Notes: a model not told the origin generated them from the letters alone. Positions 33,901 through 51,070 are shown, numbered from the stretch's first letter. The stretch: DNA of 64,000 nt from Candidatus Binatia bacterium (GCA_050176585.1 JBFXHX010000024.1:191-64190); one strand, 5' to 3'. Translations and numbers: made by a program.

Positions 33901-33902
33901 CG

Positions 33903-34991
33903 ATGGGCCGCGATCTGACGGTGGAAGACTTGGAGGACTTGGCGCGCGGCGCGGCATTCCTGGGCACCGGCGGCGGTGGCGATCCCTACATCGGGCGGCT
34001 CATCGTGCAGGAGGCCATGCGCGAGGGCGGGCGCGTCCGGCTGATCGGACTCGACGAAGTCCCCGACGACGCGCTGGTCATCCCGACCGCCATGATGGGC
34101 GCGCCGACCGTGCTCGTTGAAAAGATCCCCGCCGGAACGGAGATCATCGGTTCGCTGCAGACGCTCGAAACGCACCTCGGACGCAAAGCGTACGCGACGA
34201 TGCCGATCGAGTGCGGCGGGATCAATTCCATGATGCCGCTGCTGGTGGGCGCACGGCTGGGCATTCCGGTGGTCGACGCGGACGGCATGGGCCGCGCCTT
34301 CCCCGAGCTGCAGATGGAGACGTTTCACATCTACGGCGTCTCCGGCACGCCCATGGTGATCACCAACGACCACGGCGATTCCACCCTCATCACCGCGCAC
34401 GACAACAGGATGATGGAGCATCTCGCGCGCGGCATCACCGTCCGGATGGGCGGCTGCGCGTACATCGCCGAATACTCCATGGACGGCGCGACGGTGAAGC
34501 GGGTCTCGATCCCCGGTACGACCACCCTCGGGATCGCGATCGGACGCTGTCTGCGCGTGGCGCGCGAGCAGCACGAGGATCCGTTTGCCGCGCTGATCGA
34601 GATGTTGCGGACCACCCCGTACAAGTACGCGCGCATCATCTTCGAGGGGAAAGTCGCGGATGTGATGCGGGAGACCACCGAAGGCTTCGTGCGCGGCTTT
34701 GCGAAGCTGGAAGCGGCGGACGGCACGCCGCTGGAGATCCTCTTCCAAAACGAACACCTGATCGCCCGCTCGGACGGCCAGGTGAAAGCGATCGTTCCCG
34801 ATCTCATTTGCGTTCTCGAAGCCGATACCGCGGAGCCGATCACCACCGAGGGCATCCGCTACGGCCAGCGCGTGAAGATCATGGCCGTATCGACGCCGGC
34901 GATCATGCGCACCCCCGAGGCGCTCAACGTCTTCGGCCCGCGCGGCTTCGGGCTCGATTACGATTTCCAACCGATCGAGGAGCTGAGCTAG
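33903..34991 (+). CDS. DUF917-family protein (hydantoinase-associated, unknown function)
   Basis: 362 aa. Starts 2 nt after the HyuA-like stop, with GGGAGGGG RBS. N-terminal GTGGGGDPYIG. From memory, DUF917 genes are typically found next to hydantoinase-like genes. Confidence 0.6.
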   Translation: MGRDLTVEDLEDLARGAAFLGTGGGGDPYIGRLIVQEAMREGGRVRLIGLDEVPDDALVIPTAMMGAPTVLVEKIPAGTEIIGSLQTLETHLGRKAYATMPIECGGINSMMPLLVGARLGIPVVDADGMGRAFPELQMETFHIYGVSGTPMVITNDHGDSTLITAHDNRMMEHLARGITVRMGGCAYIAEYSMDGATVKRVSIPGTTTLGIAIGRCLRVAREQHEDPFAALIEMLRTTPYKYARIIFEGKVADVMRETTEGFVRGFAKLEAADGTPLEILFQNEHLIARSDGQVKAIVPDLICVLEADTAEPITTEGIRYGQRVKIMAVSTPAIMRTPEALNVFGPRGFGLDYDFQPIEELS

Positions 34992-35036
34992 CCGTCTCCG
35001 CCGCGGCGGCGACGAGCGAATCGGGAGCAAGCCACA

Positions 35037-35353
35037 TGGCACAACGCGTGTTCTTCCTCACTCGGCTCCGCCCGGGCATCCGTCCAGAGGACTACGAAGG
35101 GTGGCTCCGCACCGTCGATTATCCCTTCTCCGCACGGCTCCGCACGCTTCGGCGGTACGACGTGACCAGGATCGGCGGCTTGTTTCAGGGCCAGGGAAGC
35201 GCCGAGTGGCATTACCTCGAAGTAATGGACGTCACCGATCTGGAGGCCTATCGCCAGGAGGTCACGACGGGGCCCGACATCGAGGCGTTCTTCAAAGCGT
35301 GGTCGAGCTTCATCGGCGAGTCGATGGCGTACCACGGCGAGGTCATCGAATGA
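35037..35353 (+). CDS. Small (105 aa) protein, possibly dimeric alpha/beta-barrel (EthD-like), hypothetical
   Basis: ATG at 35037 with GGGAG upstream. High GC3. The ORF-track frame 34211..35353 is mostly an overlap artefact. Confidence 0.4.
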
Positions 35354-35393
35354 CCGTCGCGACGGGCGCGCCGGTTATGCAGGGGCAGTGACA

Positions 35394-36395
35394 ATGACGA
35401 GCGGAACTAGACGACACCCGGTCGGCCTCGTACTCGGCAGCGACACGGCGCCGGAGAAGTTGCCCGCCATGGCGCGCGCCGCCGAGGAGCTCGGGTACAG
35501 CGAGCTGTGGTTCGCGGAGGACTGTTTCTTCATCGGTGGCATCTCCGGCGCGACGGCGACCCTGGCGGCGACCACGGACATCCCGATCGGGCTCGGCATC
35601 CTATCCGCCGTCGTCCGCCATCCGGCGATTCTGGCCATGGAGCTCGCGACGCTCGCGCGCATGTACCCCGGACGGCTCATGCCGGGCATCGGCGTCGGCG
35701 TACCCGACTGGATGCGGCAGATCGGCCGCTTCCCGAAGTCCGCGTTGGCCGCCTTGCGGGAATGCGTAACCACCACGCGCCAGCTCCTCGCGGGAGAGGA
35801 GCTCACCCTGAAGGGCGACCTGTTCAGCTTCGATCACGTGCGGTTAACGCACGTCCCGGATCGGCCGTTGCCCATCTACATGGGCGTCGTCGGGCCGAAG
35901 AACCTGCAGCTCTCCGGCGAGATCGCCGACGGGACGGTGATCTCGGTGCTCGCGGGACCCGACTACGTGCGCTGGCTGCGAGAGCGGGTCCGCGAGGGCG
36001 CGGCACGGAGCGGCCGCTCGGCGGAGAAGCACCGCGTCGCTTGTTACGTTCTCTGTTCAGTGGACGCCGATCGCCAACGGGCGCGCGACGACGTGCGCCC
36101 GATCGTCGCCTTCTATCTGGCCGCCATGGGCCGCTGCGCGCTGACCGATGTACCCGCATATTCCGACCACCTCGAGAAACTGATCGCCAAAGGCGGTCTC
36201 CAAACGGTCACCGAGGAGATGCCGGACGAGTGGCTAGACGAGCTCGCCGTCGCCGGGACGCCGGCGGAGTGCGCGGAGAAGATCCGGCGCTATTTGCAGG
36301 CCGGCGCGGATTCGGTGGTGATCTGGCCCGCTCCCGCCGCGCGCACCGAGGCGATCGTGAACAGCGTCGCGCGCGACGTGTTTCCACGGCTGTGA
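35394..36395 (+). CDS. LLM-class (luciferase-like) flavin/F420-type oxidoreductase, paralog 1
   Basis: TIM-barrel LLM motifs: GYSELWFAEDCFF, GLGILSAVVRHPAILAMELATLARMYPGRL, IYMGVVGPK. Start is ATG 35394 or GTG 35388. Confidence 0.8.
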   Translation: MTSGTRRHPVGLVLGSDTAPEKLPAMARAAEELGYSELWFAEDCFFIGGISGATATLAATTDIPIGLGILSAVVRHPAILAMELATLARMYPGRLMPGIGVGVPDWMRQIGRFPKSALAALRECVTTTRQLLAGEELTLKGDLFSFDHVRLTHVPDRPLPIYMGVVGPKNLQLSGEIADGTVISVLAGPDYVRWLRERVREGAARSGRSAEKHRVACYVLCSVDADRQRARDDVRPIVAFYLAAMGRCALTDVPAYSDHLEKLIAKGGLQTVTEEMPDEWLDELAVAGTPAECAEKIRRYLQAGADSVVIWPAPAARTEAIVNSVARDVFPRL

Positions 36396-36498
36396 TCGGT
36401 CCGGCCATGCATCGGCGCGGCGCGGCCGCAGTGAGCGTCCGGGGTCCGGCGGCAGCGTGCACGGCTCGGACCGAGACGAATAGAAAGGCAGGTGTGAA

Positions 36499-37497
36499 GT
36501 GAGTGCGACGAATCGGCCGCCCGTCGGCCTGGTGCTTGGCAACGCGAGCCCGCCAGAGACGCTCGCCGAGACGGCGCGCGTCGCCGAGGACTTCGGCTAT
36601 AGTGAATTGTGGTTCGCCGAAGACTGTTTTTTCACCGGAGGCATCTCGGGGGCGACCGCCGCGCTGGCCGCGACCAAGGACATCCCGGTGGGTCTCGGCA
36701 TCGTCTCCGCCCTGGTCCGCCATCCGGCAATCCTCGCCATGGAGATCGCCACGCTGGCGCGCATGTACCCGGGGCGGCTGCTGCCGGGCGTCGGGCTCGG
36801 CGTGCCGGACTGGATGCGGCAGATCGGCCTGCTGCCGAAATCGCCGCTAACCGCGCTGCGCGAATGCATGTCCTCGACCACCCGCCTGCTCGCGGGTGAA
36901 GAGGTCACGATGAAGGGGCAGCTCTTCAGCTTCGACCGCGTCAAGCTCACGCACGTCCCGCATCGACCGGTGCCGATGTACATGGGCGTGGTCGGACCGA
37001 AGATGCTCCAGCTCTCCGGCGAGCTCGCCGACGGCACCGTCGTGTCCGTGGTCGCGTCGCCCGGTTACGTCAGCTGGCTGCGCGAACGCGTGCGCGAGGG
37101 AGCGGCCCGCAGCGGACGTTCGGCGGCGGCGCACCGCGTCGCGGCGTACGTGCTCTGCTCGGTCGATTCGGATCGCAAGCGCGCAAAAGAGGCGCTGCGC
37201 CCGTTCATCGCCTTCTATCTGGCTGCGGTCGGCCGTTGCGCGCTGACCGAGGTGCCCGGTTGCGCCGATCAGCTGGAGAAGCTGATCGCCAAGGGCGGCG
37301 CGGAGGCCGTGACCCGAGAGATGCCGGACGAGTGGGTCGACGAGCTCGCGATCGCGGGGGATCCGACCGAGTGCGCCGAAAAGATCAAGCACTATCTGGC
37401 CGCCGGCGCAGATTCCGTGGTCATCTTCCCGACGCCCACCGAGCGGGCCGAGGAGATCGTCAAGACCGTCGCCCGCGACGTGTTCCCGCGTCTGTGA
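36499..37497 (+). CDS. LLM-class flavin/F420-type oxidoreductase, paralog 2 (tandem duplicate of 35394..36395)
   Basis: Roughly 75% amino-acid identity to the upstream gene over its full length (same blocks GYSELWFAEDCFF, VRHPAILAME, YMGVVGPK, GRCALT, EKLIAKGG). GTG start. Confidence 0.8.
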   Translation: MSATNRPPVGLVLGNASPPETLAETARVAEDFGYSELWFAEDCFFTGGISGATAALAATKDIPVGLGIVSALVRHPAILAMEIATLARMYPGRLLPGVGLGVPDWMRQIGLLPKSPLTALRECMSSTTRLLAGEEVTMKGQLFSFDRVKLTHVPHRPVPMYMGVVGPKMLQLSGELADGTVVSVVASPGYVSWLRERVREGAARSGRSAAAHRVAAYVLCSVDSDRKRAKEALRPFIAFYLAAVGRCALTEVPGCADQLEKLIAKGGAEAVTREMPDEWVDELAIAGDPTECAEKIKHYLAAGADSVVIFPTPTERAEEIVKTVARDVFPRL

Positions 37498-37540
37498 GAT
37501 CCCAGCCCGGGGCGAACGGGAGAGTGGCCGGTTCCAGTCG

Positions 37541-38878
37541 CTAGAGGCCGGCGGTCACGCGCAACGCTTGGGCGCGCGCTTGGGCGCGCCGCAGCAGCGC
37601 GGGCTCGTCAATCGTCAGCAGCTTGCGGCCCCGGACCACCACCCGTCCGCCGACGATCACCGTATCCACATCGCCGGCGCGCGCGGAATAGACCAGGGTC
37701 GCGAGCGGATCGTGAATGGGTCGCAGATGGCTGGCCGCGGTGTCCACCAGCACGACGTCCGCCAACCGCCCCTTCTGCAGCGCTCCCACCTGGTCGCCGA
37801 GGCCGCACGCCTGCGCGCCGCCGGCGGTCGCCATCGCGAACACGTCGGCCGCGGTGAGCGCCTGCGCGTCGCGGGTGGTCACTTTGTGCAGCAGCGCCGC
37901 GTCCTTCATGACCTCGAACATATCCTGCGTGTTGTTGCAGGCCGGACCGTCGCACGCGAGGCCGATGACGATCCCAGCGCGGCGCATCTTCAGGATGGGC
38001 GCCGTTCCCGAGGCCAGGATCATGTTGGAGGTCGGATCGTGGATCACCGGCGAGCCGTGGCCGGCGATTAGCTCGATCTCGTCGTCGGTCAGGTGAATGC
38101 AGTGGTTCAACATGACGCGCTCGCCGAGTGCGCCCATCGCCGCTAAATGCGGCACATTGCGACGCCCCGTGCGCGCCTGCACGAGATCGTTGTATTCGGG
38201 CGTCTCGGCCGTGTGCAGATGGACGGCGAGGTTGCGGTCGCGCGCAAGCGCGACCGTGTCGGCCCAGTACTCCTCGGTCGCCGTCCACGGAACCAGCGGG
38301 CCGATGCCAATGCGGAGCCGCTCGTGCCCCGACCAGGCATCCACGAGCTTGCGGGTGCGCGAGGCGATCTCAGCCGTTGATTCGACGAAACCGGGCGCGA
38401 ACTCCTCATCGTTGGAACAGCGGAAGAAGACGCCGCGAATGCCGGCCTCGGCAATGGCATTGGCGGCCAGCGCATCCGCGCCTTCGCCATAGCGGGTGGA
38501 GAAAAACACTTCGCAGACGGTGGTGTTCCCGGCGCGCAGATTCTCCACCGCCCCGAGCGTGGCCGCGAGCGCGTAGTCCTCCGGCAGCATCTGCGCCATG
38601 AACGGCAGCTGCGCCTGGCTGAGCCATTGCAGCAGCGTGCGATCGGTGCCGAGCGAACGGCCGAGCGTCATGCAGAGATGCGTGTGCGCGTTGACGAATC
38701 CGGGGATGACGAGCTTGTCGCGCGCGTCGATGCGCTCAACGCCGGGCAGGCTGGGTGCGGAGCCCCGACCGACCGCCGCAATCCGGTCGCCGTCGGTGAT
38801 CACGTGTCCGGGGTCGAGCAACGGCTGCGCCGCATCCCCGGTCAGTACGGTACCGCCCTCGATCGAGAGTTGAGCCAT
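37541..38878 (-). CDS. TRZ/ATZ-family amidohydrolase (cytosine/guanine-deaminase-like, SsnA-like)
   Basis: 445 aa. GGGGAGGG RBS. Metal-binding FVNAHTHLCMT, HLHTAETPEY, HCIHL and the downstream Asp region. Confidence 0.85.
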   Translation of the reverse strand: MAQLSIEGGTVLTGDAAQPLLDPGHVITDGDRIAAVGRGSAPSLPGVERIDARDKLVIPGFVNAHTHLCMTLGRSLGTDRTLLQWLSQAQLPFMAQMLPEDYALAATLGAVENLRAGNTTVCEVFFSTRYGEGADALAANAIAEAGIRGVFFRCSNDEEFAPGFVESTAEIASRTRKLVDAWSGHERLRIGIGPLVPWTATEEYWADTVALARDRNLAVHLHTAETPEYNDLVQARTGRRNVPHLAAMGALGERVMLNHCIHLTDDEIELIAGHGSPVIHDPTSNMILASGTAPILKMRRAGIVIGLACDGPACNNTQDMFEVMKDAALLHKVTTRDAQALTAADVFAMATAGGAQACGLGDQVGALQKGRLADVVLVDTAASHLRPIHDPLATLVYSARAGDVDTVIVGGRVVVRGRKLLTIDEPALLRRAQARAQALRVTAGL

Positions 38879-38956
38879 GCTACCCCTCCCCGGCCGTGCT
38901 GCAGGAGCGCGGCGACACCTCGCGCATACGTACCGTCTACGTCGTCGGCGCCGAGC

Positions 38957-40309
38957 TCACGCGGTCACGTGCGCGTCCGCCCGCGCCAGCGCGCGATCGA
39001 GGATCGCGATCCCGAGCCGCGCATCCTCCACGGAGGTGGTGCACGGCGGCACGGCATGCACGCGATTGAAGTGCATGAACGGCCACAGCCCCTCCGCCTT
39101 GCAGGCGGCCATCACTTCCGCCATCGGCGCCGCCGCCGCGCCCGCGGCATTGTACGGGACCAGCGGCTCGCGGGTCCGCCGATTGCGGACCAGCTCGACC
39201 GCCCAGAAGCAGCCGAGACCGCGCACCTCGCCTACCGACGGATGGCGTTCCGCCAGCGCCCGCAGGCCTGGGCCAAGCACCTCATCCCCCAGGCGGCGGG
39301 CCTGCTCGATGATGCCCTCCTCCTCGAAGGTGCGGATCGAGGCGACGGCGGATGCGCAGGCGAGCGGATGGCCTGAGTACGTGAGCCCGCCGGGGAACAC
39401 CCGGTCGCGGAACGTCTCGGCGATCCGCCGCGAGATGATCACCCCGCCGAGCGGCACGTATCCGGAATTGACGCCCTTCGCGAAGGCGATGAGGTCGGGC
39501 ACGACCTTCCAGCGGTCGACCGCGAACCATTCGCCGCAGCGCCCGAAACCGGACATGACCTCGTCGCAGACGAAGACGATGCCGTACTGGTGGCAGAGCT
39601 CGCGCACGCCGGCGAGGTAGCCGTCGGGCGGCACGAGGATGCCGTTCGTGCCCACCACCGTTTCGAGCATCACGGCAGCGATCGTGCTGGGCCCCTCGAA
39701 GGTGATCGTATCGGCGAGATGCGCGAGGGCGCGCTCGCACTCCTCGGCCTCGGAGGACGCGTGGAATGGGGACCGATACGGATACGGTCCCCAGAAGTGG
39801 ACCACGCCGGGCATCGCGGGTTCATTCGGCCATCTCCGCGGGTCACCGGTCATGGCAATCGCGCCGCTGGTGGCGCCGTGGTAGCTGCGGTACGCGGTCA
39901 GGATCTTCTGCCGCCCGGTGTGGAGGCGGGCGAGGCGCGCGGCGTTTTCGGTCGCCTCCGCGCCGCCGTTGGTGAAGAACACGACGTCGAGATCGCCCGG
40001 GGCGTGCGACGCGATGAGGCGCGCGGCCTCGCTGCGCATGTCGTTGGCGTGAAACGGCGCGATCGTGCACAGCTTCGCCGCCTGCGCCTGAATGGCGGCC
40101 ACGAGCTTGGGGTGCTGGTGGCCGATGTTGACGTTGACCAGCTGCGAGGCGAAATCCAAGTACCGCTTGCCGCTCTCGTCCCAGAACCACGAGCCCTGGG
40201 CCCCGGCGACGACCACTGGGTCGAGCGCGCCTTGCGCCGACCACGAGTGAAACACGTGCGCGCGGTCGTCCGCTTTGGCCTGTCCCGGCGGGGTATCGCG
40301 AGTGCTCAT
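38957..40309 (-). CDS. Class-III (omega) aminotransferase, beta-alanine/omega-amino acid:pyruvate transaminase-like
   Basis: 450 aa. PLP-lysine context DLIAFAKGVNSGYVPLGGV. VCDEVMSGFGR, and Gly-rich TNGGAEA. Confidence 0.9.
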   Translation of the reverse strand: MSTRDTPPGQAKADDRAHVFHSWSAQGALDPVVVAGAQGSWFWDESGKRYLDFASQLVNVNIGHQHPKLVAAIQAQAAKLCTIAPFHANDMRSEAARLIASHAPGDLDVVFFTNGGAEATENAARLARLHTGRQKILTAYRSYHGATSGAIAMTGDPRRWPNEPAMPGVVHFWGPYPYRSPFHASSEAEECERALAHLADTITFEGPSTIAAVMLETVVGTNGILVPPDGYLAGVRELCHQYGIVFVCDEVMSGFGRCGEWFAVDRWKVVPDLIAFAKGVNSGYVPLGGVIISRRIAETFRDRVFPGGLTYSGHPLACASAVASIRTFEEEGIIEQARRLGDEVLGPGLRALAERHPSVGEVRGLGCFWAVELVRNRRTREPLVPYNAAGAAAAPMAEVMAACKAEGLWPFMHFNRVHAVPPCTTSVEDARLGIAILDRALARADAHVTA

Positions 40310-40325
40310 TGTCCGCGCCGACCGC

Positions 40326-41339
40326 TCACGCCTTTGCTACCGCGACCGCCGGCATGATCGTCTCGCCATACGCCTCGAGGGTCGCTTGCTTGGCGTCGTG
40401 CTGGAGGTAGATCGCGAACTGGTCGACCCCCATTGCCTTCAGCTCCTGCAGGCGCTCGATGTGATGAGCGGGCGATCCGAGGATGCAGAAGCGGTCAACG
40501 ATGGCATCGGGCACGAACGCGGTGTGCCTGTTCCCGCTGCGCCCGTGCTCGCTGTAGTCGTAGCCCGCGCGCTGCGCGATGTAATCCGTGAGCGCCCGCG
40601 GCACGTCCGCGCCGCCCTTCGCACCGTACCGTTTGACGATCTCCACCACGTGGTTGCCGACCATGCCGCCGAACCAGCGGCATTGGTCGCGCTGATGGGC
40701 GAGGTCGTCCCCGACGTAGGCAGGGGCGGCGACGCAGATCTTCACGCTCGCCGGATCGCGACCCGCCTGCTCGGCTGCATCCCGGACGGCTCTGATCGAC
40801 CATCGCGTGACGTCGGGATCGGCGAGCTGCAGGATGAACCCGTCCGCGATTTCGCCGGTGAGCGCCAGCGCCTTCGGCCCGTACGCCGCCATCCACACTT
40901 CCAGGCGGCTCGCGCTGCCCCAAGTGAAGCGCAGCCGCGCGTTGTTGTGCTCGATATCTCGCCCATTGGCGAGCTCCCGGATCACGTGAATGGCCTCGCG
41001 CAACGTGGCCAGGTTGCTGGGCGCGCCGTTGATGACGCGGACGGAGGAGTCGCCGCGCCCGATGCCGCACACGGTGCGGTTGCCGTACATCTCGTTGAGC
41101 GTGGCAAAAAGGCTCGCCGTCACCGTCCAGTCCCGCGTCACCGGATTGGTGACCATGGGGCCGACGATCACCTTCCGGGTCTCGGCCAGGATCTGGCTGT
41201 AGATCACGAACGGCTCCTGCCAGAGCAGGGGGGAGTCGAACGTCCACACGTGGGTGAAGCCGAGGAGTTCGGCGCGCTTGGCAAGGTCGACGACCCGCCA
41301 CGCCGGCGGGTCCGTCTGCAGGACGATGCCGAAATCCAT
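40326..41339 (-). CDS. LLM-class flavin/F420-type oxidoreductase embedded in the pyd-like operon
   Basis: 337 aa from the ATG at 41339, which lies 2 nt after the mmsA stop (translational coupling). Starts MDFGIVLQTDPP...FTHVWTFDSPLLW, a typical LLM N-terminus. The ORF-track ORF 40326..41672 is over-extended. Confidence 0.8.
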   Translation of the reverse strand: MDFGIVLQTDPPAWRVVDLAKRAELLGFTHVWTFDSPLLWQEPFVIYSQILAETRKVIVGPMVTNPVTRDWTVTASLFATLNEMYGNRTVCGIGRGDSSVRVINGAPSNLATLREAIHVIRELANGRDIEHNNARLRFTWGSASRLEVWMAAYGPKALALTGEIADGFILQLADPDVTRWSIRAVRDAAEQAGRDPASVKICVAAPAYVGDDLAHQRDQCRWFGGMVGNHVVEIVKRYGAKGGADVPRALTDYIAQRAGYDYSEHGRSGNRHTAFVPDAIVDRFCILGSPAHHIERLQELKAMGVDQFAIYLQHDAKQATLEAYGETIMPAVAVAKA

Positions 41340-41341
41340 GC

Positions 41342-42829
41342 TCAGCGGACCTGGGGAAAGCCGAGATCGACCCGCGACGTCGCCGGATCGGGCCAGCGCG
41401 ACGTGACGACCTTGGTGCGGGTGTAGAAGTCGATGCCTTCCGGGCCGTACATGTGTCGATCGCCGAACAGCGAGGCCTTCGACCCGCCGAAGCTGTAGTA
41501 CGCGACCGGCACCGGGATCGGCACGTTGATGCCGACCATGCCGATGTTGACGTCGAACTGAAATCGCCGCGCGGCGCCGCCATCGCGGGTGAAGATCGCC
41601 GTCCCGTTGCCGTACGGGTTCTCGTTCACGAGGTCGACCGCGGCGCCGTACGAGTCGACCCGCGCGACGCACAGCACGGGGCCGAAGATCTCGTCGCGGT
41701 AGCAGGCCATCTCGGGCGTGACGTGGTCGATCAGCGACACCCCGAGGAAGAAGCCCTCGCGCGGGACCGCGGCCTCGCGGCCGTCGACCAGCACGACGGC
41801 GCCCTGCTCGCGGCTGGAGTCCAGATACGAGGCGACCTTGTCCCGGTGCTCGCGCGTGATGAGCGGCCCCATCTCGCTGCGCGGGTCGGAACCAGGCCCG
41901 ACCGCGATCTTGCCGAGGCGGGAGCGGATCGCGTCGACCAAGGCGTCGGCGACCTCGCCCACGGCGACCACCACCGACACCGCCATGCAGCGCTCGCCGG
42001 CCGAGCCATAGGCGGCGGAGACAGCTGCATCGGCGGCCATGTCGATGTCGGCGTCGGCCAGCACGACCATGTGGTTCTTGGCCCCGCCGAGGGCCTGCAC
42101 CCGCTTTCCGTTGCGCGTGCCGGTTTCATAAATGTAGCGCGCGATCGGCGTCGAGCCGACGAACGATACGGCGGCGACATCGGGATGCTCGAGCAACCCG
42201 TCGACTGCGAGCTTGTCGCCATGCACGACGTTGAACGCTCCGTCCGGCAGTCCCGCCCGCTGCAGCAGCTCGGCCAGCAGGAGCGGTGCCGACGGGTCCT
42301 TCTCGCTCGGCTTCAGCACGAACGCATTCCCGCAGACCAGCGCGTTTGCGATCATCCAGATCGGCACCATCGCCGGAAAGTTGAACGGCGTGATGCCGGC
42401 GACTACGCCGAGTGGCTGGCGGATGCTGTACACGTCGACCCCGCTGGAGGCCTGCTCGCTGTAGCCGCCTTTGAGCAGGTGCGCCGCGCCACACGCGAAC
42501 TCGATGTTCTCCAGGCCGCGCGCCACCTCGCCGAGCGCATCGTCGCTCACCTTGCCGTGCTCGGCGGTGATGAGCGCGGCGATGTCGCGCCGATGCCGGT
42601 CCACGAGCTCGCGGAACTTGAACATCACCTCGGTGCGGCGCGACAGCGCCGTCGCACGCCACGCCGGAAAAACGGCGACCGCCGCGGCCACCGCCGCGTC
42701 GATTTCCGCGCGCGAAGCGAAATCGACCTCCGCTTTCACTTGTCCCGTGGCGGGATCGAAGACCTGCCCGCGGCGGCCGGACGCGCCGGCGACCGCCCGG
42801 CCGCCGACGAAGTGATGAATGTGCTGCAT
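41342..42829 (-). CDS. mmsA: Methylmalonate-/malonate-semialdehyde dehydrogenase (CoA-acylating)
   Basis: 495 aa from the ATG at 42829 (GAGGAG RBS). MMSDH-type ALDH with catalytic Cys in GSAGERCMA, lacking the general-base Glu context of hydrolytic ALDHs. GITPFNFP, VLKPSE. Confidence 0.85.
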   Translation of the reverse strand: MQHIHHFVGGRAVAGASGRRGQVFDPATGQVKAEVDFASRAEIDAAVAAAVAVFPAWRATALSRRTEVMFKFRELVDRHRRDIAALITAEHGKVSDDALGEVARGLENIEFACGAAHLLKGGYSEQASSGVDVYSIRQPLGVVAGITPFNFPAMVPIWMIANALVCGNAFVLKPSEKDPSAPLLLAELLQRAGLPDGAFNVVHGDKLAVDGLLEHPDVAAVSFVGSTPIARYIYETGTRNGKRVQALGGAKNHMVVLADADIDMAADAAVSAAYGSAGERCMAVSVVVAVGEVADALVDAIRSRLGKIAVGPGSDPRSEMGPLITREHRDKVASYLDSSREQGAVVLVDGREAAVPREGFFLGVSLIDHVTPEMACYRDEIFGPVLCVARVDSYGAAVDLVNENPYGNGTAIFTRDGGAARRFQFDVNIGMVGINVPIPVPVAYYSFGGSKASLFGDRHMYGPEGIDFYTRTKVVTSRWPDPATSRVDLGFPQVR

Positions 42830-42837
42830 GGCGCTCC

Positions 42838-44262
42838 TCAGACTAGATAGTTGCTCACATCGCGCTTCACGAACCGCCCGTGGCCCTTGCGCCCGAGGTA
42901 TTCGTCGTTCTCCACCAGCACGGTGCCGCGGGACAGCACGGTGTCGACCTTGCCATCGATCACCCAGCCCTCCCACGCGGAATAGTCGACGTTCATGTGG
43001 TGCTTCTTGGCGTAGCCGACCTCGGTGCGCGCATTCGGATCCCACACGACGACGTCCGCGTCGGCGCCCGGCGCGATCACGCCCTTGCGCGGGTACATGC
43101 CGAACATCCGCGCCGGGGTCGTGCAACACGTCTCCACCCAGCGCTCGAGGGAGAGCTCGCCGCGCACCACGCCTTGGTACATGAGCTCCATGCGGTGCTC
43201 GACGCCGCCTATGCCGTTCGGAATCTTCGCAAAGTCACCCCGCCCCAGCTCCCGCTGATCCTTCATACAAAACGGGCAGTGATCGGTCGACACGACGGCG
43301 AGCTCGTTCTTGCGAAGCCCCTTCCACAGATCCGCGTGATGGTGGCGATGGTCGTGCTTGGAGCGGATCGGCGGCGAGCAGACGTACTTCGCGCCCTCGA
43401 ATCCCGGCTGCGCGAGGTGGTCCTCGAGCGTCATGTAGAGATACTGCGGGCACGTCTCGGCGAACACGTTCTGGCCGGCGTGGCGCGCCTCCGCGACCGC
43501 GTCGAGTGCTTCGGCGGCCGACATATGCACGATGTAGAGCGGCACGTTGCCGGCGACCTTCGCGAGGGCGATCGCGCGGTGGGTGGCCTCGCCTTCGAGC
43601 AGCGACGGGCGGGTGAGCGAATGGAACTTCGGATCGGTGTCGCCCCGCGCACGCGCCTGGGCGATGAGCACGTCGATCGCGATACCGTTCTCGGCGTGCA
43701 TCATCATCAGCGCGCCGCACTCGGCGACGGTCTGCATGGCGCGCAGGATCTGGCCGTCGTCGCTGTAGAACACGCCGGGATACGCCATGAAAAGCTTGAA
43801 GCTGGTGATGCCCTCGTGTGCGACCAGGTCCTTCATCGCCTCCAGCGAACCGGCGTCGACGCCGCCGATGATCTGGGAAAAGCCGTAGTCGATGGCGCAA
43901 TTGCCGTCGGCCTTGCGATGCCACTCGGCCAAGCTGTCGTGCACGTTCTCGCCGTACCGCTGCACCGACATATCGCAGATCGTGGTGACGCCACCCCAGG
44001 CCGCCGCGCGGGTGCCGGTCTCGAAGTTGTCGCTGCACTTCGTACCGCCGAAGGGAAGGTCCATGTGGGTGTGCACGTCGACCCCACCCGGGATCACGTA
44101 CTTGCCGGTCGCTTCGATGATCCTGTCACACCCGGCCTCGATCTTGCCGAGCGCGCCAGGAATGAACACGGCGGCGATGCTCTCGCCGTCAATCAGCACG
44201 TCGTTCGTAACCAGTCCGGTGGCGCTGATGACCTTGCCGTTTTTGATCAATGTGCGTGCCAC
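42838..44262 (-). CDS. Dihydropyrimidinase / D-hydantoinase
   Basis: 474 aa from the GTG at 44262 (GGAGGA RBS). Metal ligands GGVDVHTHMD, carbamylated-Lys region SFKLFMAY, HAENG, STDHCPF. Confidence 0.9.
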   Translation of the reverse strand: MARTLIKNGKVISATGLVTNDVLIDGESIAAVFIPGALGKIEAGCDRIIEATGKYVIPGGVDVHTHMDLPFGGTKCSDNFETGTRAAAWGGVTTICDMSVQRYGENVHDSLAEWHRKADGNCAIDYGFSQIIGGVDAGSLEAMKDLVAHEGITSFKLFMAYPGVFYSDDGQILRAMQTVAECGALMMMHAENGIAIDVLIAQARARGDTDPKFHSLTRPSLLEGEATHRAIALAKVAGNVPLYIVHMSAAEALDAVAEARHAGQNVFAETCPQYLYMTLEDHLAQPGFEGAKYVCSPPIRSKHDHRHHHADLWKGLRKNELAVVSTDHCPFCMKDQRELGRGDFAKIPNGIGGVEHRMELMYQGVVRGELSLERWVETCCTTPARMFGMYPRKGVIAPGADADVVVWDPNARTEVGYAKKHHMNVDYSAWEGWVIDGKVDTVLSRGTVLVENDEYLGRKGHGRFVKRDVSNYLV

Positions 44263-44395
44263 GTCAGTCCTCCGTCGGGAAGGCGCGGCGGGGGGACGCC
44301 GCCGCGGCATGGGGGCGCGCCCGCCCCACCCTCCAGGTGGCGCGCGCCGCGACGCGGAACGAAAGTCCTGCGGAATGCGGATCGCCGCAGCGAGA

Positions 44396-45238
44396 TCATG
44401 ATGCGATCAGCGGGCCGTACATGTCGGGCCGGCGGTCGCGGTAAAACGCCCATTGCTGGCGCACCTCGGAGATCACGTCCATGTCGAGGTCGCGCACCAC
44501 GAGCTCCTCCTCGTACGTACTCGCCACCCCGCCGACGAACTCGCCGCGCGGGTTCACGAAGTAGGTCTGGCCGTAGAAGTCGTTGTCGCCGAGGTCCTCG
44601 ACGCCGACGCGATTGATCGCGCCGATGTAGTACTCGTTCGCGACCGCGGACGCGGGTTGCTCGAGCTGCCAGAGGTGCGCGGATAAGCCGCGCGAGGTGG
44701 CCGATGGGTTGAAGACGATCCGCGCGCCGCCGAGCCCGAGCGCCCGCCAGCCCTCGGGGAAATGGCGGTCATAACAGATGTACACGCCGATGCGGCCCAC
44801 GGCGGTGTCGAATACCGGGTAGCCGAGATTGCCGGGTCGAAAATAGAACTTCTCCCAAAAACCCTTGACCTGTGGAATGTGCGTTTTGCGATATTTCCCG
44901 AGGTAGCGGCCGTCGGCGTCGATCACCGCTGCGGTGTTGTACAGCACGCCCTCCTGCTCCTGCTCGTACATGGGCACGACGAGAACCAGTTTGAGGTCCT
45001 TCGCCAGCTGGCGCATGCGCTGAATCGTCGGCCCGTCGGGTATCGGCTCGGCGTACCCGTAGTACCGCGTGTCCTGCACTTGACAGAAGTACGGCCCGAA
45101 GAAGAGCTCCTGGAAGCACATCACTTGGGCGCCGTGCTCAGCCGCCTGGCGCGCATAGGCGACGTGCACATCGATCATGGACGCCTTGTCGCCCGTCCAC
45201 TTCGCCTGAACCAGAGCGGCGCGGATCACGTTGGCCAT
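44396..45238 (-). CDS. Nitrilase-superfamily beta-ureidopropionase (N-carbamoyl-beta-amino acid amidohydrolase), paralog 1
   Basis: 280 aa. AAGGGAG RBS. Glu-Lys-Cys triad contexts (CFQELF, GKYRKTHIP, GVYICYDRHFPEG). Strongly alignable by eye to eukaryote-type beta-alanine synthase (GKHRKNHIP...ICYGRHHP...IIFNPSAT). Confidence 0.8.
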   Translation of the reverse strand: MANVIRAALVQAKWTGDKASMIDVHVAYARQAAEHGAQVMCFQELFFGPYFCQVQDTRYYGYAEPIPDGPTIQRMRQLAKDLKLVLVVPMYEQEQEGVLYNTAAVIDADGRYLGKYRKTHIPQVKGFWEKFYFRPGNLGYPVFDTAVGRIGVYICYDRHFPEGWRALGLGGARIVFNPSATSRGLSAHLWQLEQPASAVANEYYIGAINRVGVEDLGDNDFYGQTYFVNPRGEFVGGVASTYEEELVVRDLDMDVISEVRQQWAFYRDRRPDMYGPLIAS

Positions 45239-45490
45239 GGCGGTTCTCCCTTCATCTGGTCCCAGCTCTCGGCTGGATCATAAGGGAAGGCGCGGACGGC
45301 TGACAATGCCGAACGACCGTCGGAGAGTGTCGCACAGGCCGCGCTCGCCCGATGAGCGGCACTATCTGCACTAGCAGCCGCTCTCCCACTTTGGTTTGCC
45401 AGAACACGCCGCGGGTCAGTAGAAGAGGGCGGCCACACTGCGAAGCGTTGCTCCACGGATTGCGAACGCAAGGAAGGAAGGAGCCGGCTG

Positions 45491-46531
45491 ATGCTGACGT
45501 TTGGTGTGATGTTCGATCCCGTCGCCGAGGCGGCGGACTGGTCGCGTTTCGCCGAAGAACGCGGCTTCGAGTACATCTACTTCATCGATTCCCCCGTGCG
45601 CTGGCGGGAAATGACCCCGTTCATGACCCTCGCGGCGCTGAATACGAAGAAGGCGAAGATCGGCGCCTGCGTCACGAATCCGGTGTCGCGGAACCCGGTA
45701 GTGACGGCGAGCAGCCACGCCGCGCTGCACGAGCTCAGCGGCGGGCGGGCGCTCATCGGCCTCGGCAAGGGCGACAGCGCGCTGCGCACGCTCGGCGAAC
45801 GGCCGGCCCGCCTGAAGGCGTTCCAGGAGAAAGCGCTGTTCATCCAGCGGCTGGCGAATGGCGAAACGGTGGACTACACGCCTCAGGTTCCCGCGCACGA
45901 GCAATGGCATGCGCAGGGGAGCGGCGCGATCCGGCTGCAATTGCAGTGGGCGCCCAAGCAGCACATTCCGCTCTACATCGCCGGGTACTCGCCCAAAGTG
46001 ATGCGCTGGGCGGGCGCGGTCGCCGACGGCGTGTTTTTGCAGATCGCCGATCCGGACACGATCGCGTGGTGCACGGGCAACATCCGCGCGGGCGCCGCGA
46101 AGGCGGGACGGGACCCGCGTGCAATCGACATCGTCTGCGCCGCTCCCACCGCGGTCAACGACGATCTTCATGCCGCCTGTGATGCCGTCCGCGGCTTCCC
46201 GGCGTACGTCTCTAACCACGTCGTGGACATGCTCAACTACTACGATCGCTCCGAATTTCCCGAAAGCTTGCTGAAGAGCCTCGCCGCGAAACAGGTATAC
46301 GACTATCGGGAGCACACGAGCAGTCACGCGGAGCACAGCGGCAGCTTCCCCGACGACGTGGTGGAGAGCTTCACGATCGTCGGATCGGCCGAACGATGCG
46401 CGAACAAAATCAAACTCCTCGAGTCCCTCGGCGTGACCCAGATCGGCCTGTACTTCTTCGGCGAGCCGGATCAGACCGTCCGCTCGACCATCCGCACCTA
46501 TGCCGATCAGATCATGCCGCGCGTGAGATGA
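45491..46531 (+). CDS. LLM-class flavin/F420-type oxidoreductase
   Basis: 346 aa. Very strong RBS AAGGAAGGAG. LLM blocks FEYIYFIDSP, GRALIGLGKGDS, IAGYSPK. Confidence 0.8.
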   Translation: MLTFGVMFDPVAEAADWSRFAEERGFEYIYFIDSPVRWREMTPFMTLAALNTKKAKIGACVTNPVSRNPVVTASSHAALHELSGGRALIGLGKGDSALRTLGERPARLKAFQEKALFIQRLANGETVDYTPQVPAHEQWHAQGSGAIRLQLQWAPKQHIPLYIAGYSPKVMRWAGAVADGVFLQIADPDTIAWCTGNIRAGAAKAGRDPRAIDIVCAAPTAVNDDLHAACDAVRGFPAYVSNHVVDMLNYYDRSEFPESLLKSLAAKQVYDYREHTSSHAEHSGSFPDDVVESFTIVGSAERCANKIKLLESLGVTQIGLYFFGEPDQTVRSTIRTYADQIMPRVR

Positions 46532-46633
46532 CCCGGGCCCGGGTTGCGCGCGGCGGGCGCCCGGGTGAGTGACGCGGGCCGACGCTGCGAGGTGCGGGGG
46601 ACTCCAGGCACACACTATTGGAGGGTGACAGCC

Positions 46634-47494
46634 ATGGCCGTCGTCAAAGTGGCGATGATCCAGCAGCAGGGCGCGTATGAGAAGGAGAAGAACGTCGCCA
46701 AGGCGCGGCAGTACATTCGCCAGGCGGCGCAGAACGGGGCCCGCATCATCTGCCTCCAGGAGCTCTTCAACACGATCTATTTCTGCTTCGAGGAGAACGC
46801 GAAGTACTTCGACTGGGCCGAGACCATCCCGGGCCCGACCACCGATGCCATCGCCGAGGTGGCTCGGCAGGAAGGCGTGGTGGTCGTCTGCCCCATCTAC
46901 GAGCGCTCCGCCGACGTGAAAGCGGTCCGCTACAACGCCGCCGCGGTGCTCGGCGCTCAGGGCGAGCTGATGGGCATCTACCGCAAGCACAGCATCCCCC
47001 TGGTGCGGACCGAGTCGCTGAGCGCGAACGAGAAATTCTATTTCAACGTCGGCAACACGGGCTTCCCCGTGTTCCAGACCCCGTTCGGCGTCAATGTGGG
47101 GATCGTCATCTGTTACGACCGACACTTTCCGGAGGGGCCGCGCAGCGTCGCGCTGAATGGCGCGGACATCATGTTCGTGCCTACCGCGACGTGGGGCATG
47201 TCGCGGCCCATCTGGGAGATCGAGCTGAAAGGGCACGCCGTCTTCAACCTCTTCTACGTCGGCGGCGTGAACCGCGTCGGACTGGACGAGCGCGGCAACC
47301 CGAAGGGGAACTTCTACGGATCGAGCATCTTCGTCACGCCGCTGGGCGAGATCACCGCGACTGCCAGCGATCAGCACGATGACATCATCTACAGCGACGT
47401 CGACACGGGAGTGATCGAGCGCATCCGCGACGACTGGGGCCTCTACCGCGATCGCCGACCCGACGCGTACGGCGCGCTCGCCGCCGCCAAGTGA
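46634..47494 (+). CDS. Nitrilase-superfamily beta-ureidopropionase-like amidohydrolase, paralog 2
   Basis: 286 aa from the ATG at 46634 (GGAGGGTG RBS). Same triad blocks as paralog 1 (CLQELF, GIYRKHSIP, GIVICYDRHFPEG, MFVPTAT). Confidence 0.8.
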   Translation: MAVVKVAMIQQQGAYEKEKNVAKARQYIRQAAQNGARIICLQELFNTIYFCFEENAKYFDWAETIPGPTTDAIAEVARQEGVVVVCPIYERSADVKAVRYNAAAVLGAQGELMGIYRKHSIPLVRTESLSANEKFYFNVGNTGFPVFQTPFGVNVGIVICYDRHFPEGPRSVALNGADIMFVPTATWGMSRPIWEIELKGHAVFNLFYVGGVNRVGLDERGNPKGNFYGSSIFVTPLGEITATASDQHDDIIYSDVDTGVIERIRDDWGLYRDRRPDAYGALAAAK

Positions 47495-47533
47495 GCCGAG
47501 TCGCGTTCCACACCCCGATTGCGTGAGTGCGTC

Positions 47534-49918: not shown

Positions 49919-50055
49919 CCCGGCGCTCCGGACGCCGACGGCAGCCAAGCACCGCGGCAGTCGTTGCCGTCGAGCGCGGGCGCCGGTGCGCGGCGTTTGC
50001 CGACTCGAAGCCCGTCTCGATAGAGTGCGCTCCCGCACGCGGTGAAAGGATCGCT

Positions 50056-50964
50056 ATGTCGACGCCTCGTTCACAGACGAATCTCGCCCGCGCTGACAAA
50101 CCCCTGACCGATTACTCCATTTGGACGCTCGCCTACTGTCAGGCCGACATGCCGCACGACTTCTTCGGCGGTTCCGGCTTGATGAGCAACAAGGGTACGG
50201 TACAGATTCCCATGCTCTACACCGTGCTCGTCGGCGGCGAGGTCGGCGGCAAACGGCACGTCGCCCTGGTGGATGCGGGGTTCGGCAACCAGGAATGGAT
50301 GTCGCGCTACAATTTCTTCGCCTGGGAAGATCCGCTGCACGTGCTCGGCAAAGTGCAGATCAAACCGGAGGACGTGGACGCGATCCTCGTCACCCACCTG
50401 CACTTCGACCACGTCGGCAACTTCGGCGCGTTCCCGAACGCGCATCTGTACATTCAACTCGACGAGTACATGGGGTGGCTGCGCACGCTCGCGCTTCCGG
50501 CCGATTTCGGCGGCGGCCAGCGGGCCTGGCTGCTGTCCTCGCTCGATCCGCAGGACATTCACAACGTCGCCTCCGCGATTGCACTCGGCAAGGTGACGTT
50601 GATCGAAGGGGATGCCGAAGTGCTGCCGGGCATCACCGCACGCTTGGCGAAGGACTCGCACACCTTCGGCACTCAATGGTTCGAAGTGGAGACCCTCAAC
50701 GGCACTTTCGCCATCGCCGGCGACGCGGTGTACTGGTACTCGAACGTCGAGCAGATGTGGCCACCGGGATACAATCAGGGCAATCCCTTCAACCAGCTGT
50801 TCACGTACGATCGCATCCGCCGCACGCTCCGCAGCGAGCTCGAACGCCTCATTCCGGGCCATGATCCACTCGTGTGGCAACGGCACCGCACCTGGAGCGC
50901 CGGTCCGAACCAGGTGGCGGAGGTGACGCTCGCGAAGGGGCAGGCCTCCAAGAAGCCTACATAG
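50056..50964 (+). CDS. MBL-fold metallo-hydrolase (lactonase-like)
   Basis: 302 aa from the ATG at 50056 (AAAGGA RBS). HxHxDH motif THLHFDHVGN. Downstream His and Asp ligands. Confidence 0.75.
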   Translation: MSTPRSQTNLARADKPLTDYSIWTLAYCQADMPHDFFGGSGLMSNKGTVQIPMLYTVLVGGEVGGKRHVALVDAGFGNQEWMSRYNFFAWEDPLHVLGKVQIKPEDVDAILVTHLHFDHVGNFGAFPNAHLYIQLDEYMGWLRTLALPADFGGGQRAWLLSSLDPQDIHNVASAIALGKVTLIEGDAEVLPGITARLAKDSHTFGTQWFEVETLNGTFAIAGDAVYWYSNVEQMWPPGYNQGNPFNQLFTYDRIRRTLRSELERLIPGHDPLVWQRHRTWSAGPNQVAEVTLAKGQASKKPT

Positions 50965-51070
50965 AAGGAGCTTGTGCCGGGCTGCGTAGCGCAGCGCCGC
51001 GTCCGAACGATGGCTGGCGCATTGAGCGCAGTGCAGTCGCGCGGCGCCGAAAAGAGAGAGCGGAGAAAGC

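Follow-up and report, generated by a model that had tools for sequence, protein, structure and literature searches.

A luciferase-like (LLM) oxidoreductase of family TIGR03842 is probably an F420H2-dependent uracil/thymine reductase, which would serve as a non-orthologous replacement for PydA/PreTA/DPD in pyrimidine degradation. The gene lies in a 64-kb stretch of DNA from a Candidatus Binatia bacterium (hereafter the window), within a unit of six co-directional minus-strand ORFs (37541–45238) that are free of internal stops. An initial annotation had described these six genes, their spacing and three LLM paralogs around them, all of which were recovered here:

45277–45306, minus strand: sigma-70-like promoter match, TTGTCA-18-TATGAT, 39 nt upstream of the CN-hydrolase ATG
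44396–45238, minus strand: CN-hydrolase (Pfam CN_hydrolase, 221 bits); putative N-carbamoyl-beta-alanine / beta-aminoisobutyrate amidase (beta-ureidopropionase type 1)
42838–44262, minus strand: dihydropyrimidinase / D-hydantoinase, GTG start (TIGR02033, 537 bits, cutoff 393)
41342–42829, minus strand: CoA-acylating (methyl)malonate-semialdehyde dehydrogenase MmsA (MMSDH TIGR01722, 717 bits, cutoff 448)
40326–41339, minus strand: LLM class F420-dependent oxidoreductase, proposed F420H2:uracil/thymine reductase (TIGR03842, 580 bits, cutoff 295)
41229–41231, minus strand: codon 37 of the LLM gene, CCC (Pro); near-invariant His (CAC) in the family alignment
38957–40309, minus strand: class-III (omega) aminotransferase, putative beta-alanine / beta-aminoisobutyrate transaminase (PRK06062, 768 bits, cutoff 472; Pfam Aminotran_3)
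37541–38878, minus strand: putative TRZ/ATZ-type amidohydrolase/deaminase, peripheral to the conserved module (best NCBIfam match 5'-deoxyadenosine deaminase, 357 bits, cutoff 522)
35388–36395, 36499–37497 and 45491–46531: three further LLM genes flanking the operon

Read 5' to 3' along the unit, the intergenic gaps are 133, 8, 2, 16 and 78 nt, with the LLM ATG 2 nt past the mmsA stop. The dihydropyrimidinase ORF could reach back from its GTG at 44262 to an ATG at 44310. No terminator-like sites were found on the minus strand within the six-gene unit. The promoter match is the sole promoter-like site in 37300–45600, but it is only suggestive, since about 0.9 such sites are expected by chance in that interval.

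Partner genes and the ring-reduction step

The dihydropyrimidinase, mmsA and class-III aminotransferase assignments of the initial annotation held, each scoring above the cutoff of its family, and the closest solved relative of the dihydropyrimidinase is the Brevibacillus agri enzyme 3sfw (463 bits). Putative Pyd pathway members in the window are thereby a PydB dihydropyrimidinase and, for disposal of beta-alanine / beta-aminoisobutyrate, an omega-aminotransferase and MmsA. The gene previously called a beta-ureidopropionase does encode a CN-hydrolase, and its sequence places it in the carbamoyl-amine amidase branch. Its more specific name is drawn from context, because the protein attained no equivalog cutoff (top NCBIfam match aguB-like, 259 bits, cutoff 410) and a search of PDB sequences found its similarity to N-carbamoylputrescine amidase (197 bits) and to eukaryotic beta-ureidopropionases (182 and 177 bits) to be about the same, with D-carbamoylase at 106 bits. 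The deamination step that had been assigned to a cytosine-deaminase-like gene found no support: the amidohydrolase at 37541–38878 resembles TRZ/ATZ and 5'-deoxyadenosine-deaminase proteins, scored under every NCBIfam cutoff and had no ortholog in any of 80 related loci, leaving the name cytosine deaminase unsupported.

Like the initial annotation, we found no PydA/PreTA-like gene (DHO_dh/PreA-like or GltD/PreT-like) in the 64-kb window, using Pfam/NCBIfam scans of called genes and tblastn searches with the E. coli PreT and PreA proteins; PreT/PreA homologs were likewise not found across 93 loci (1.63 Mb in all). Little can be concluded from a single window without pydA, since PreTA is not adjacent to the canonical clusters of S. 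meliloti and Thalassospira either. Every step except ring reduction has a candidate enzyme in these clusters.

Family, fold and predicted cofactor of the LLM enzyme

The LLM protein aligned over its full length (residues 2–332 on profile positions 1–329) to TIGR03842, an F420-class NCBIfam family of unknown function ('CPS_4043 family'), and an identical (100%) NCBI protein from a Candidatus Binatia MAG is named as a TIGR03842-type LLM. Its top NCBIfam matches were all F420 families, FMN-LLM matches were marginal (E 1e-10 or weaker), and neither RutA nor SsuD models were among the 24 NCBIfam families matched at E ≤0.001. The nearest solved proteins were Mer (F420-dependent 5,10-methylene-tetrahydromethanopterin reductase; 118–135 bits), and the solved relatives were all F420 enzymes. 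An AF2 model of the protein (pLDDT 78.7, pTM 0.83) also matched Mer structures best (Foldseek TM 0.75), making Mer its closest characterised homolog in both sequence and predicted structure. The two align collinearly, and the alignment predicts F420 binding through retained Mer motifs (GPxVTNP..TAS, GxGxGD and GPK..GExxDG). Mer-clade LLMs form the F420H2-consuming 'reductase' branch (PMC6279831).

Identity with Mer itself was rejected: scores against the two Mer models were 134 bits (cutoff 276) and 118 bits (cutoff 349), and residue 6 of TIGR03842 is an invariant Val where Mer has its catalytic Glu6. Mer also lacks a family-specific insert of ~50 residues (about 221–270), a presumed substrate lid modelled at a pLDDT of only 52–64, and the genomic context of the LLM gene is pyrimidine catabolism, not C1 metabolism. 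Profile comparison, which addressed whether the operon LLM belongs to an F420 subfamily or with RutA/SsuD-like enzymes, thus firmly indicates an F420-class, Mer-related enzyme that is neither RutA/SsuD-like nor Mer.

Linkage of the LLM gene across phyla

Context was counted in 80 related loci, mostly actinobacterial. Among 62 related loci with an upstream flank of 3.6 kb or more before LLM, 59 kept the order and strand of the CN-hydrolase, dihydropyrimidinase, (MmsA) and LLM genes, with gaps mostly of 5–60 nt and CN-hydrolase orthologs (58–83% identity) at the head. Having CN-hydrolase and dihydropyrimidinase genes directly upstream of LLM on the same strand this often puts the arrangement far beyond chance. 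The downstream enzymes were less constant: mmsA stood directly 5' of LLM in 21 related loci, aminotransferase orthologs (≥50% identity) occurred within 10 kb in 37 of 80, and 12 of 36 loci with full flanks had the trio of CN-hydrolase, dihydropyrimidinase and LLM with neither aminotransferase nor MmsA within 10 kb, which ties LLM to the ring steps and not to beta-alanine processing. Many actinobacterial loci carried an NMT1/THI5-type ABC transporter after the module and a MocR-type regulator before it. The TIGR03842 LLM is 76–82% identical between Binatia and Actinomycetota, with just a single full-length 50%-identity cluster lying above 60% identity, and such extreme conservation suggests one universal substrate.

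Similar linkage was found outside the Actinomycetota. A Chloroflexota locus encodes on one strand a CN-hydrolase (69% identity to that in the window), LLM (48%) and dihydropyrimidinase (56%), and an Acidobacteriota contig has a CN-hydrolase ortholog 5 kb from LLM. Proteobacterial LLM proteins (~41% identical) are encoded by the last gene of a cofGHDCE-npdG(Fno) operon in all eight contexts, and in five of these the F420 operon adjoins genes for a TIGR02033 dihydropyrimidinase, an M20 carbamoylase (TIGR01879), an NCS1 or NMT1-ABC transporter and an aminotransferase; the other three had no dihydropyrimidinase within 10–12 kb. Linkage of LLM, dihydropyrimidinase and a carbamoyl-amidase is thus common to Actinomycetota, Chloroflexota, Binatia and Proteobacteria. 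The M20 decarbamoylase and the transporter of Proteobacteria have no homology to their actinobacterial counterparts, and persistence of the link between LLM and dihydropyrimidinase despite this replacement supports a role for LLM as the ring reductase. Of the 80 mostly actinobacterial loci, 10 had a cofC, cofD or cofE homolog no more than 10 kb from the cluster, among them loci of Cellulomonas, Leifsonia, Agromyces and Cryobacterium, and no cof/fbi F420-biosynthesis homologs were found within the 64-kb Binatia window.

Proposed reaction and alternative functions

The initial annotation had suggested that the LLM enzyme fills the place of the absent ring reductase, perhaps using F420H2, and its family class, its cross-phylum linkage and the proteobacterial F420/Fno operons all point the same way. 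From these data we infer the substrate, reaction direction and chemistry as follows. F420H2 would be supplied in Proteobacteria by Fno, which would reduce F420 from NADPH, and elsewhere by FGD or Fno. Hydride transfer from F420H2 to C6 of uracil or thymine, with protonation of C5 by an enzyme acid, would yield 5,6-dihydrouracil or 5,6-dihydrothymine. Dihydropyrimidinase would then open the ring, the CN-hydrolase (an M20 enzyme in Proteobacteria) would remove the carbamoyl group, and the class-III aminotransferase and MmsA would convert beta-alanine / beta-aminoisobutyrate to acetyl-CoA / propionyl-CoA. We found no description of a TIGR03842 LLM as a pyrimidine ring reductase in the searchable literature.

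Since TIGR02033 enzymes also include D-hydantoinases and the CN-hydrolase attains no beta-ureidopropionase equivalog, the cluster could instead degrade another, related N-heterocycle that the LLM enzyme reduces or oxidises (a pyrimidine bearing substituents or modifications, a hydantoin-type precursor or some other cyclic-ureide precursor), with any uracil reduction carried out by a PydA encoded elsewhere. Our search for pydA covered the 64-kb window and the fetched loci, and the window also holds two TRZ/ATZ amidohydrolases, a Mo-hydroxylase, hydantoinase-A-like and S-Me-THD-like genes and an amidase. We nevertheless consider this unlikely: MmsA and class-III aminotransferase genes co-cluster in about half of loci, fitting a beta-alanine / beta-aminoisobutyrate product; NCS1 and NMT1/THI5-type transporters accompany the module, and a like ABC transporter and a RutR regulator flank hydA in S. 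meliloti; and the close similarity of Binatia and actinobacterial LLM proteins suggests a single substrate. It seems very improbable that the LLM enzyme instead works at the last stage, in the manner of RutE/YdfG, as a malonate / methylmalonate-semialdehyde reductase or a 3-hydroxy-acid dehydrogenase that depends on F420. Many characterised F420-dependent LLMs do use alcohol/carbonyl pairs (Adf, FGD, fHMAD, phthiodiolone ketoreductase), and LLM is the immediate neighbor of mmsA both in the window and in the 21 loci noted above, but its universal partners are dihydropyrimidinase and carbamoyl-amidase, including in the trio-only loci. Such an activity would be redundant wherever MmsA is present, would leave ring reduction without an enzyme, and would make a whole F420 operon hard to rationalise for a job done by ubiquitous NAD(P)H enzymes.

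To our knowledge, no LLM other than RutA has a known role in pyrimidine catabolism. RutA shares the Bac_luciferase superfamily (PF00296) with the operon LLM, and its substrates are uracil or thymine. The initial annotation had allowed for a hybrid pathway, which would be oxidative/reductive if the LLM were a RutA/SsuD-like FMN-dependent monooxygenase. RutA is oxidative and FMN/O2-dependent and works with RutB–G, whereas the LLM studied here falls among F420 families in profile and structure searches alike, and its proteobacterial orthologs share an operon with F420 biosynthesis and Fno genes. We reject the hybrid pathway as extremely unlikely.

Even if TIGR03842 is a family of pyrimidine reductases, the Binatia copy could be impaired or neofunctionalised, with the operon relying on another reductase. 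The motif W-T/F-F/Y-D-S-H-L/I-L-W carries its His in 117 of 118 sequences of the enzyme's own clade and in all 109 proteobacterial members, so that the operon LLM, with Pro at position 37, is the sole exception among 227 sampled TIGR03842 members. Judged from alignment offsets, position 37 corresponds to the catalytic His of FGD1 (His40) and of Adf (His39), and loss of a near-invariant His at such a site may mean that the Pro37 copy is altered or impaired. The protein also departs from consensus in 7 of 183 near-invariant columns, whereas the median for the other sequences is 0. Apart from Pro37, however, these departures are largely conservative changes, and some of them would be expected of a single Binatia protein compared with actinobacterial ones. 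Several observations make impairment unlikely: the gene is intact, translationally coupled through its 2-nt gap and otherwise ~80% identical to orthologs; D-S-P also occurs in an LLM paralog in the window and in a metagenomic fragment (P0246), indicating that Pro is tolerated in related enzymes; and Mer-type reductases may not employ this His as FGD and Adf do.

As a uracil/thymine reductase, the LLM enzyme would catalyze the same reaction as PydA/PreTA/DPD (EC 1.3.1.1 / 1.3.1.2), uracil/thymine to the 5,6-dihydro-pyrimidine, and would likewise head the reductive pathway, feeding dihydropyrimidinase and carbamoyl-amidase. The two are unrelated in sequence as well as fold: PydA/PreTA/DPD combine a DHODH-like FMN barrel with a GltD-like FAD/Fe-S subunit and draw electrons from NAD(P)H via Fe-S clusters, whereas the LLM enzyme is a metal-free TIM barrel for which we propose F420H2 as donor. 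A precedent for uracil-ring reduction comes from napsamycin / mureidomycin biosynthesis, where genetic evidence shows that reduction of the uracil C5=C6 bond in mureidomycins requires NpsU / SSGG-03002, a putative F420/FMN oxidoreductase (PMC10714638), though in-vitro activity was not obtained. Unlike the LLM enzyme, NpsU / SSGG-03002 has distant homologs of the PPOX/FDOR class, and its substrate is a uridyl-peptide antibiotic made in secondary metabolism. If the TIGR03842 LLM performs ring reduction in pyrimidine catabolism, this may explain why some Proteobacteria make F420.

The operon and its surroundings

The six minus-strand open reading frames that the initial annotation read as a pyrimidine operon are present and free of internal stops, with gaps of 133, 8, 2, 16 and 78 nt between them as it had claimed, and the ATG of the luciferase-like oxidoreductase (LLM) does lie 2 nt past the mmsA stop.

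Genes of the minus-strand operon, with profile scores
44396-45238, minus strand: CN-hydrolase; below every equivalog cutoff
42838-44262, minus strand: dihydropyrimidinase (DHPase); TIGR02033, 537 bits (cutoff 393)
41342-42829, minus strand: CoA-acylating methylmalonate-semialdehyde dehydrogenase (MmsA); TIGR01722, 717 bits (cutoff 448)
40326-41339, minus strand: LLM; NCBIfam TIGR03842, 580 bits (cutoff 295)
38957-40309, minus strand: class-III aminotransferase; PRK06062, 768 bits (cutoff 472)
37541-38878, minus strand: TRZ/ATZ-type amidohydrolase; below all cutoffs

The DHPase start codon at 44262 is GTG. The one sigma-70-like match is located 39 nt 5' of the first operon gene, and no terminator-like site was found within the minus-strand six-gene unit, consistent with transcription of the six genes as one message. 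The first gene had been called a beta-ureidopropionase: among solved proteins this CN-hydrolase scores 182 and 177 bits to the animal enzymes, but N-carbamoylputrescine amidase is about equally close (197 bits; D-carbamoylases are far lower, at 106) and no equivalog cutoff is reached, so beta-ureidopropionase would be a reading from gene context. The cytosine deaminase reading of the amidohydrolase was a guess, as the protein falls below every cutoff and lies outside the conserved module, with no counterpart at any of the 80 related loci compared.

PydA/PreTA, the usual NAD(P)H-dependent dihydropyrimidine dehydrogenase (DPD), is indeed absent from the window, judging from Pfam/NCBIfam scans of called genes and from tblastn searches in which E. 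coli PreT and PreA served as queries, and PreTA was likewise not found in 93 loci totalling 1.63 Mb. Since the canonical DHPase clusters of S. meliloti (L092, 6652-15083) and Thalassospira (L093, 845-10458), which contain no LLM, also have no neighbouring PreTA, we treat its absence near the LLM as weak evidence rather than as diagnostic of a replacement of PreTA in situ.

Three additional LLM genes flank the operon, as previously reported. One of them (45491-46531), which is 34% identical to the operon LLM and scores 269 bits to TIGR03842 (under the 295 cutoff), belongs to a second, plus-strand module (45491-53741) that is divergent from the pyrimidine operon and has a 252-nt intergenic region in common with it. 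This module also encodes a second CN-hydrolase, a Mo-hydroxylase large subunit (CoxL/XdhA-like), a metallo-beta-lactamase-fold protein, a second TRZ/ATZ amidohydrolase and a Rieske oxygenase alpha subunit, and is possibly another N-heterocycle degradation route; its pairing of LLM and CN-hydrolase was absent in the sole informative relative (L098). The other two paralogs (35388-36395 and 36499-37497) are tandem F420-class LLMs resembling Mer, the F420-dependent methylene-tetrahydromethanopterin reductase. They lie in an upstream plus-strand cluster (29349-37497), convergent with the operon, together with an amidase of the amidase-signature family, a MetE-like protein (Meth_synt_2), a hydantoinase-A/oxoprolinase-like protein without a B subunit and an S-Me-THD-like protein (PF06032/PF20906). 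This cluster, too, appears to be a catabolic unit for cyclic amides or hydantoin-type compounds that makes use of F420. Meta-cleavage-type aromatic catabolic genes at 54750-58554 and 61124-62596 (acylating acetaldehyde dehydrogenase, DmpG-like 4-hydroxy-2-oxovalerate aldolase, LigB-type extradiol dioxygenase and aldehyde dehydrogenase) are unrelated to the pyrimidine finding.

Family placement of the oxidoreductase

Profile classification places the operon LLM, first described as only possibly F420-dependent, in the F420-class family TIGR03842, with no match to the RutA or SsuD models of NCBIfam. TIGR03842 is a "hypothetical equivalog", a family thought to have one common, as yet unassigned, function, and NCBIfam release 20.0 (June 2026) still gives it none. 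The family is unusually tight: the best 120 matches to the window LLM share 76-82% identity with it, and when 50%-identity cluster representatives were searched exhaustively, only one full-length representative exceeded 60%.

A search against solved proteins found no structure for any TIGR03842 member, and the solved relatives above threshold were all F420 enzymes, with Mer first (118-135 bits), then FGD2/fHMAD, Adf and FGD1. The best matches to an AlphaFold model of the LLM (pLDDT 78.7, pTM 0.83) were also Mer structures (TM 0.75). The two proteins align collinearly and the cofactor-binding motifs of Mer are kept in the LLM, whereas the catalytic Glu6 of Mer is replaced by an invariant Val and the Mer cutoffs are missed; the LLM is Mer-like yet not Mer, falling outside that enzyme by its defining tests. 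Since the Mer clade is the F420H2-consuming "reductase" branch among F420-dependent LLMs (Mascotti et al., PMC6279831), a reductive role is favoured. An insert at about residues 221-270 (RWFxxMVGNHVxDIV...GYDYxEHG) is specific to the family, common to all its clades and missing from the neighbouring, generic Mer-like LLMs. Because this insert is the poorest-modelled region of the AlphaFold structure, we base no active-site reasoning on the model.

Genomic linkage across phyla

Scanning one genome per species revealed at least 596 loci encoding an LLM relative, and such relatives are abundant in marine and soil metagenomes. The best 80 loci, taken for context, are mostly from Actinomycetota, among them Mycobacterium, Rhodococcus, Nocardia, Cellulomonas, Microbacterium, Actinoplanes, Ilumatobacteraceae and Acidimicrobiia. 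Where at least 3.6 kb of upstream sequence was available, CN-hydrolase and DHPase genes lay immediately 5' of the LLM on the same strand (59 of 62 loci), with MmsA between DHPase and LLM in about one third of those loci and gaps to the LLM mostly of 5-60 nt. Unbiased clustering of all open reading frames at the loci showed that the genes directly 3' of the LLM encode an ABC transporter whose binding protein is of NMT1/THI5 type and whose first permease gene overlaps the LLM stop codon, and that a divergent MocR-type regulator gene lies upstream of the cluster. Twelve of the 36 loci with full flanks carry the trio of CN-hydrolase, DHPase and LLM with neither aminotransferase nor MmsA inside 10 kb, indicating that the obligate partners of the LLM are the ring-opening enzymes.

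No F420-biosynthesis gene was found in the 64-kb window. Homologs of cofD, cofE or cofC do occur inside 10 kb at 10 of the 80 loci, including those of Cellulomonas, Leifsonia, Agromyces and Cryobacterium, where cofD (in some also cofE or cofC) lies 3-9 kb 5' of the trio operon and a siderophore-type ABC transporter sits between them.

Loci with cof homologs
L034, L035, L047, L050, L056, L063, L069, L071, L074, L080: positions 1-6000 of each

Proteins of the Binatia operon share 70-83% identity with proteins annotated as actinobacterial at the 80 loci (at most 83% for the CN-hydrolase and 82% for the LLM). Elsewhere the window carries separate genes for 2-oxoacid dehydrogenase complex E1, E2 and E3 and a LolA-like/DUF1329 gene, from which we infer that the host is a diderm and not an actinobacterium. 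Because the operon proteins are this similar to actinobacterial ones while other genes indicate a diderm host, our comparison suggests that the whole operon may have been transferred horizontally between Actinomycetota and Binatia. G+C is ~65-70% across the whole window, and no base-composition anomaly was seen in the operon.

TIGR03842 genes on annotated plasmids of Leisingera and Paracoccus encode proteins with ~41% identity to the window LLM. The Leisingera order is cofG-cofH-cofD-cofC-cofE-npdG-LLM, where npdG encodes Fno (NADPH:F420 oxidoreductase), and pntAB, genes for a class-III aminotransferase and a "Zn-dependent hydrolase", and hydA stand back-to-back to this operon. Counting the seven other proteobacterial contexts (Paracoccus, Cohaesibacter, the gammaproteobacterium Marinobacterium, an abundant marine alphaproteobacterium, Pseudovibrio, Hoeflea and Pukyongiella), the LLM is the final gene of an F420-biosynthesis and Fno operon in eight of eight.

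Operons of cofG/H/D/C/E, npdG and LLM in Alpha- and Gammaproteobacteria
L081: 6510-13002
L082-L090: ~4400-11000 each

In five of the eight, the neighbouring genes encode DHPase, an M20 "hydantase/carbamoylase" amidase and a transporter of NCS1 or NMT1-ABC type, and three of these five have an aminotransferase as well; no DHPase was found inside 10-12 kb of three of the eight operons. At the marine alphaproteobacterial locus, scores exceed cutoffs for DHPase (TIGR02033, 592 bits against 393), amidase (TIGR01879, 392 against 204), Fno (172 against 150) and LLM (TIGR03842, 504 against 295). A Chloroflexota (Limnocylindrales) contig encodes on one strand a CN-hydrolase, LLM and DHPase with 69%, 48% and 56% identity to those of the window, and an Acidobacteriota contig carries the CN-hydrolase ortholog 5 kb away from its LLM, short of the contig end. 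The LLM-DHPase pairing thus survives both deep divergence of the LLM and the exchange of decarbamoylase and transporter for non-homologous proteins, and we regard this survival as the strongest evidence that the LLM works in this pathway.

In the canonical S. meliloti and Thalassospira clusters, the ABC transporter next to hydA (ATPase, two permeases, binding protein) resembles the NMT1-type system by layout alone, and the S. meliloti cluster also contains the RutR regulator. This layout is consistent with pyrimidine or dihydropyrimidine uptake by the NMT1-type system.

A putative F420-dependent ring reduction

We propose ring reduction for the LLM because it is the sole reaction of the reductive pathway left without an enzyme in these clusters. 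Building on the gene identities, family membership, F420-class homology and linkages observed here, we infer substrate, direction and chemistry: most likely, the LLM would reduce uracil to 5,6-dihydrouracil or thymine to 5,6-dihydrothymine. F420 would be reduced by NADPH via Fno, or in Actinomycetota possibly by glucose-6-phosphate via FGD; the LLM would pass the F420H2 hydride to pyrimidine C6, with protonation at C5, and DHPase, carbamoyl-amidase, aminotransferase and MmsA would complete the route. Hydride reduction of activated C=C or C=N bonds by F420H2 is established for F420 enzymes (see PMC8498797; PMC5449967). In mureidomycin biosynthesis, a putative F420/FMN oxidoreductase (NpsU/SSGG-03002) is genetically required for reduction of the uracil C5=C6 bond, with no in-vitro activity (PMC10714638); as a PPOX-class protein it was set aside as a homologous precedent and offers a functional analogy only. 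The LLM would likewise be an analogue of PydA/PreTA/DPD in its proposed function, but the two share neither fold nor cofactors nor electron donor.

Extending this to the family, we lean slightly towards TIGR03842 comprising F420H2-dependent dihydropyrimidine dehydrogenases, with the proteobacterial cofGHDCE-fno-LLM operon as a self-contained cofactor-plus-enzyme cassette mainly for pyrimidine catabolism. It is unlikely, in our judgement, that the LLM instead acts on a different heterocyclic substrate. Its action as a terminal semialdehyde reductase is disfavoured by the trio-only loci and seems very unlikely, and both the family assignment and the proteobacterial F420 operons argue against a RutA-like monooxygenase, which we consider highly improbable.

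The window's own LLM differs from its family at codon 37 (41229-41231, minus strand), which reads CCC (Pro), one nucleotide from the family His codon CAC. His occupies this position in 117 of 118 own-clade and 109 of 109 proteobacterial members (226 of 227 sampled overall), and alignment offsets place it within ~1 residue of His40 of FGD1 and His39 of Adf, which we take to be the proposed catalytic acid/base in their own enzymes. The window LLM is atypical in this respect, and its activity might be altered. Since paralog 45491-46531 and metagenomic fragment P0246 also carry D-S-P, Pro at this site is tolerated in related enzymes; an impairment peculiar to the window's copy strikes us as quite unlikely.

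In the full-text literature outside subscription-only journals, no paper was found that connects pyrimidine catabolism with F420 or with any LLM, and the preprint version of Price et al. 2018 contains nothing on the subject. What is new here would be a known pathway with a predicted non-orthologous, F420-dependent first enzyme. If the LLM does reduce pyrimidines, a large and strongly conserved family, with relatives encoded at no fewer than 596 loci of species-representative genomes, would gain a function. It would also add LLM-class ene-reduction of the pyrimidine ring as a new F420 reaction type, provide an Fe-S-free, non-orthologous substitute for dihydropyrimidine dehydrogenase and put right how annotation pipelines fill gaps in this pathway; there may be a bearing, too, on microbial fluoropyrimidine drug metabolism and on making dihydropyrimidines and beta-amino acids by biocatalysis. 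The PydA gap would be filled in hundreds of actinobacterial species, as well as in Chloroflexota and Binatia. A 2021 review noted that no F420-dependent enzyme had been studied in non-actinobacterial bacteria and that why Proteobacteria make F420 was an open question, its trace levels suggesting a niche role (PMC8498797). Pyrimidine reduction by the LLM would give the first physiological reason, concrete and testable, for F420 synthesis in many Alpha- and Gammaproteobacteria.
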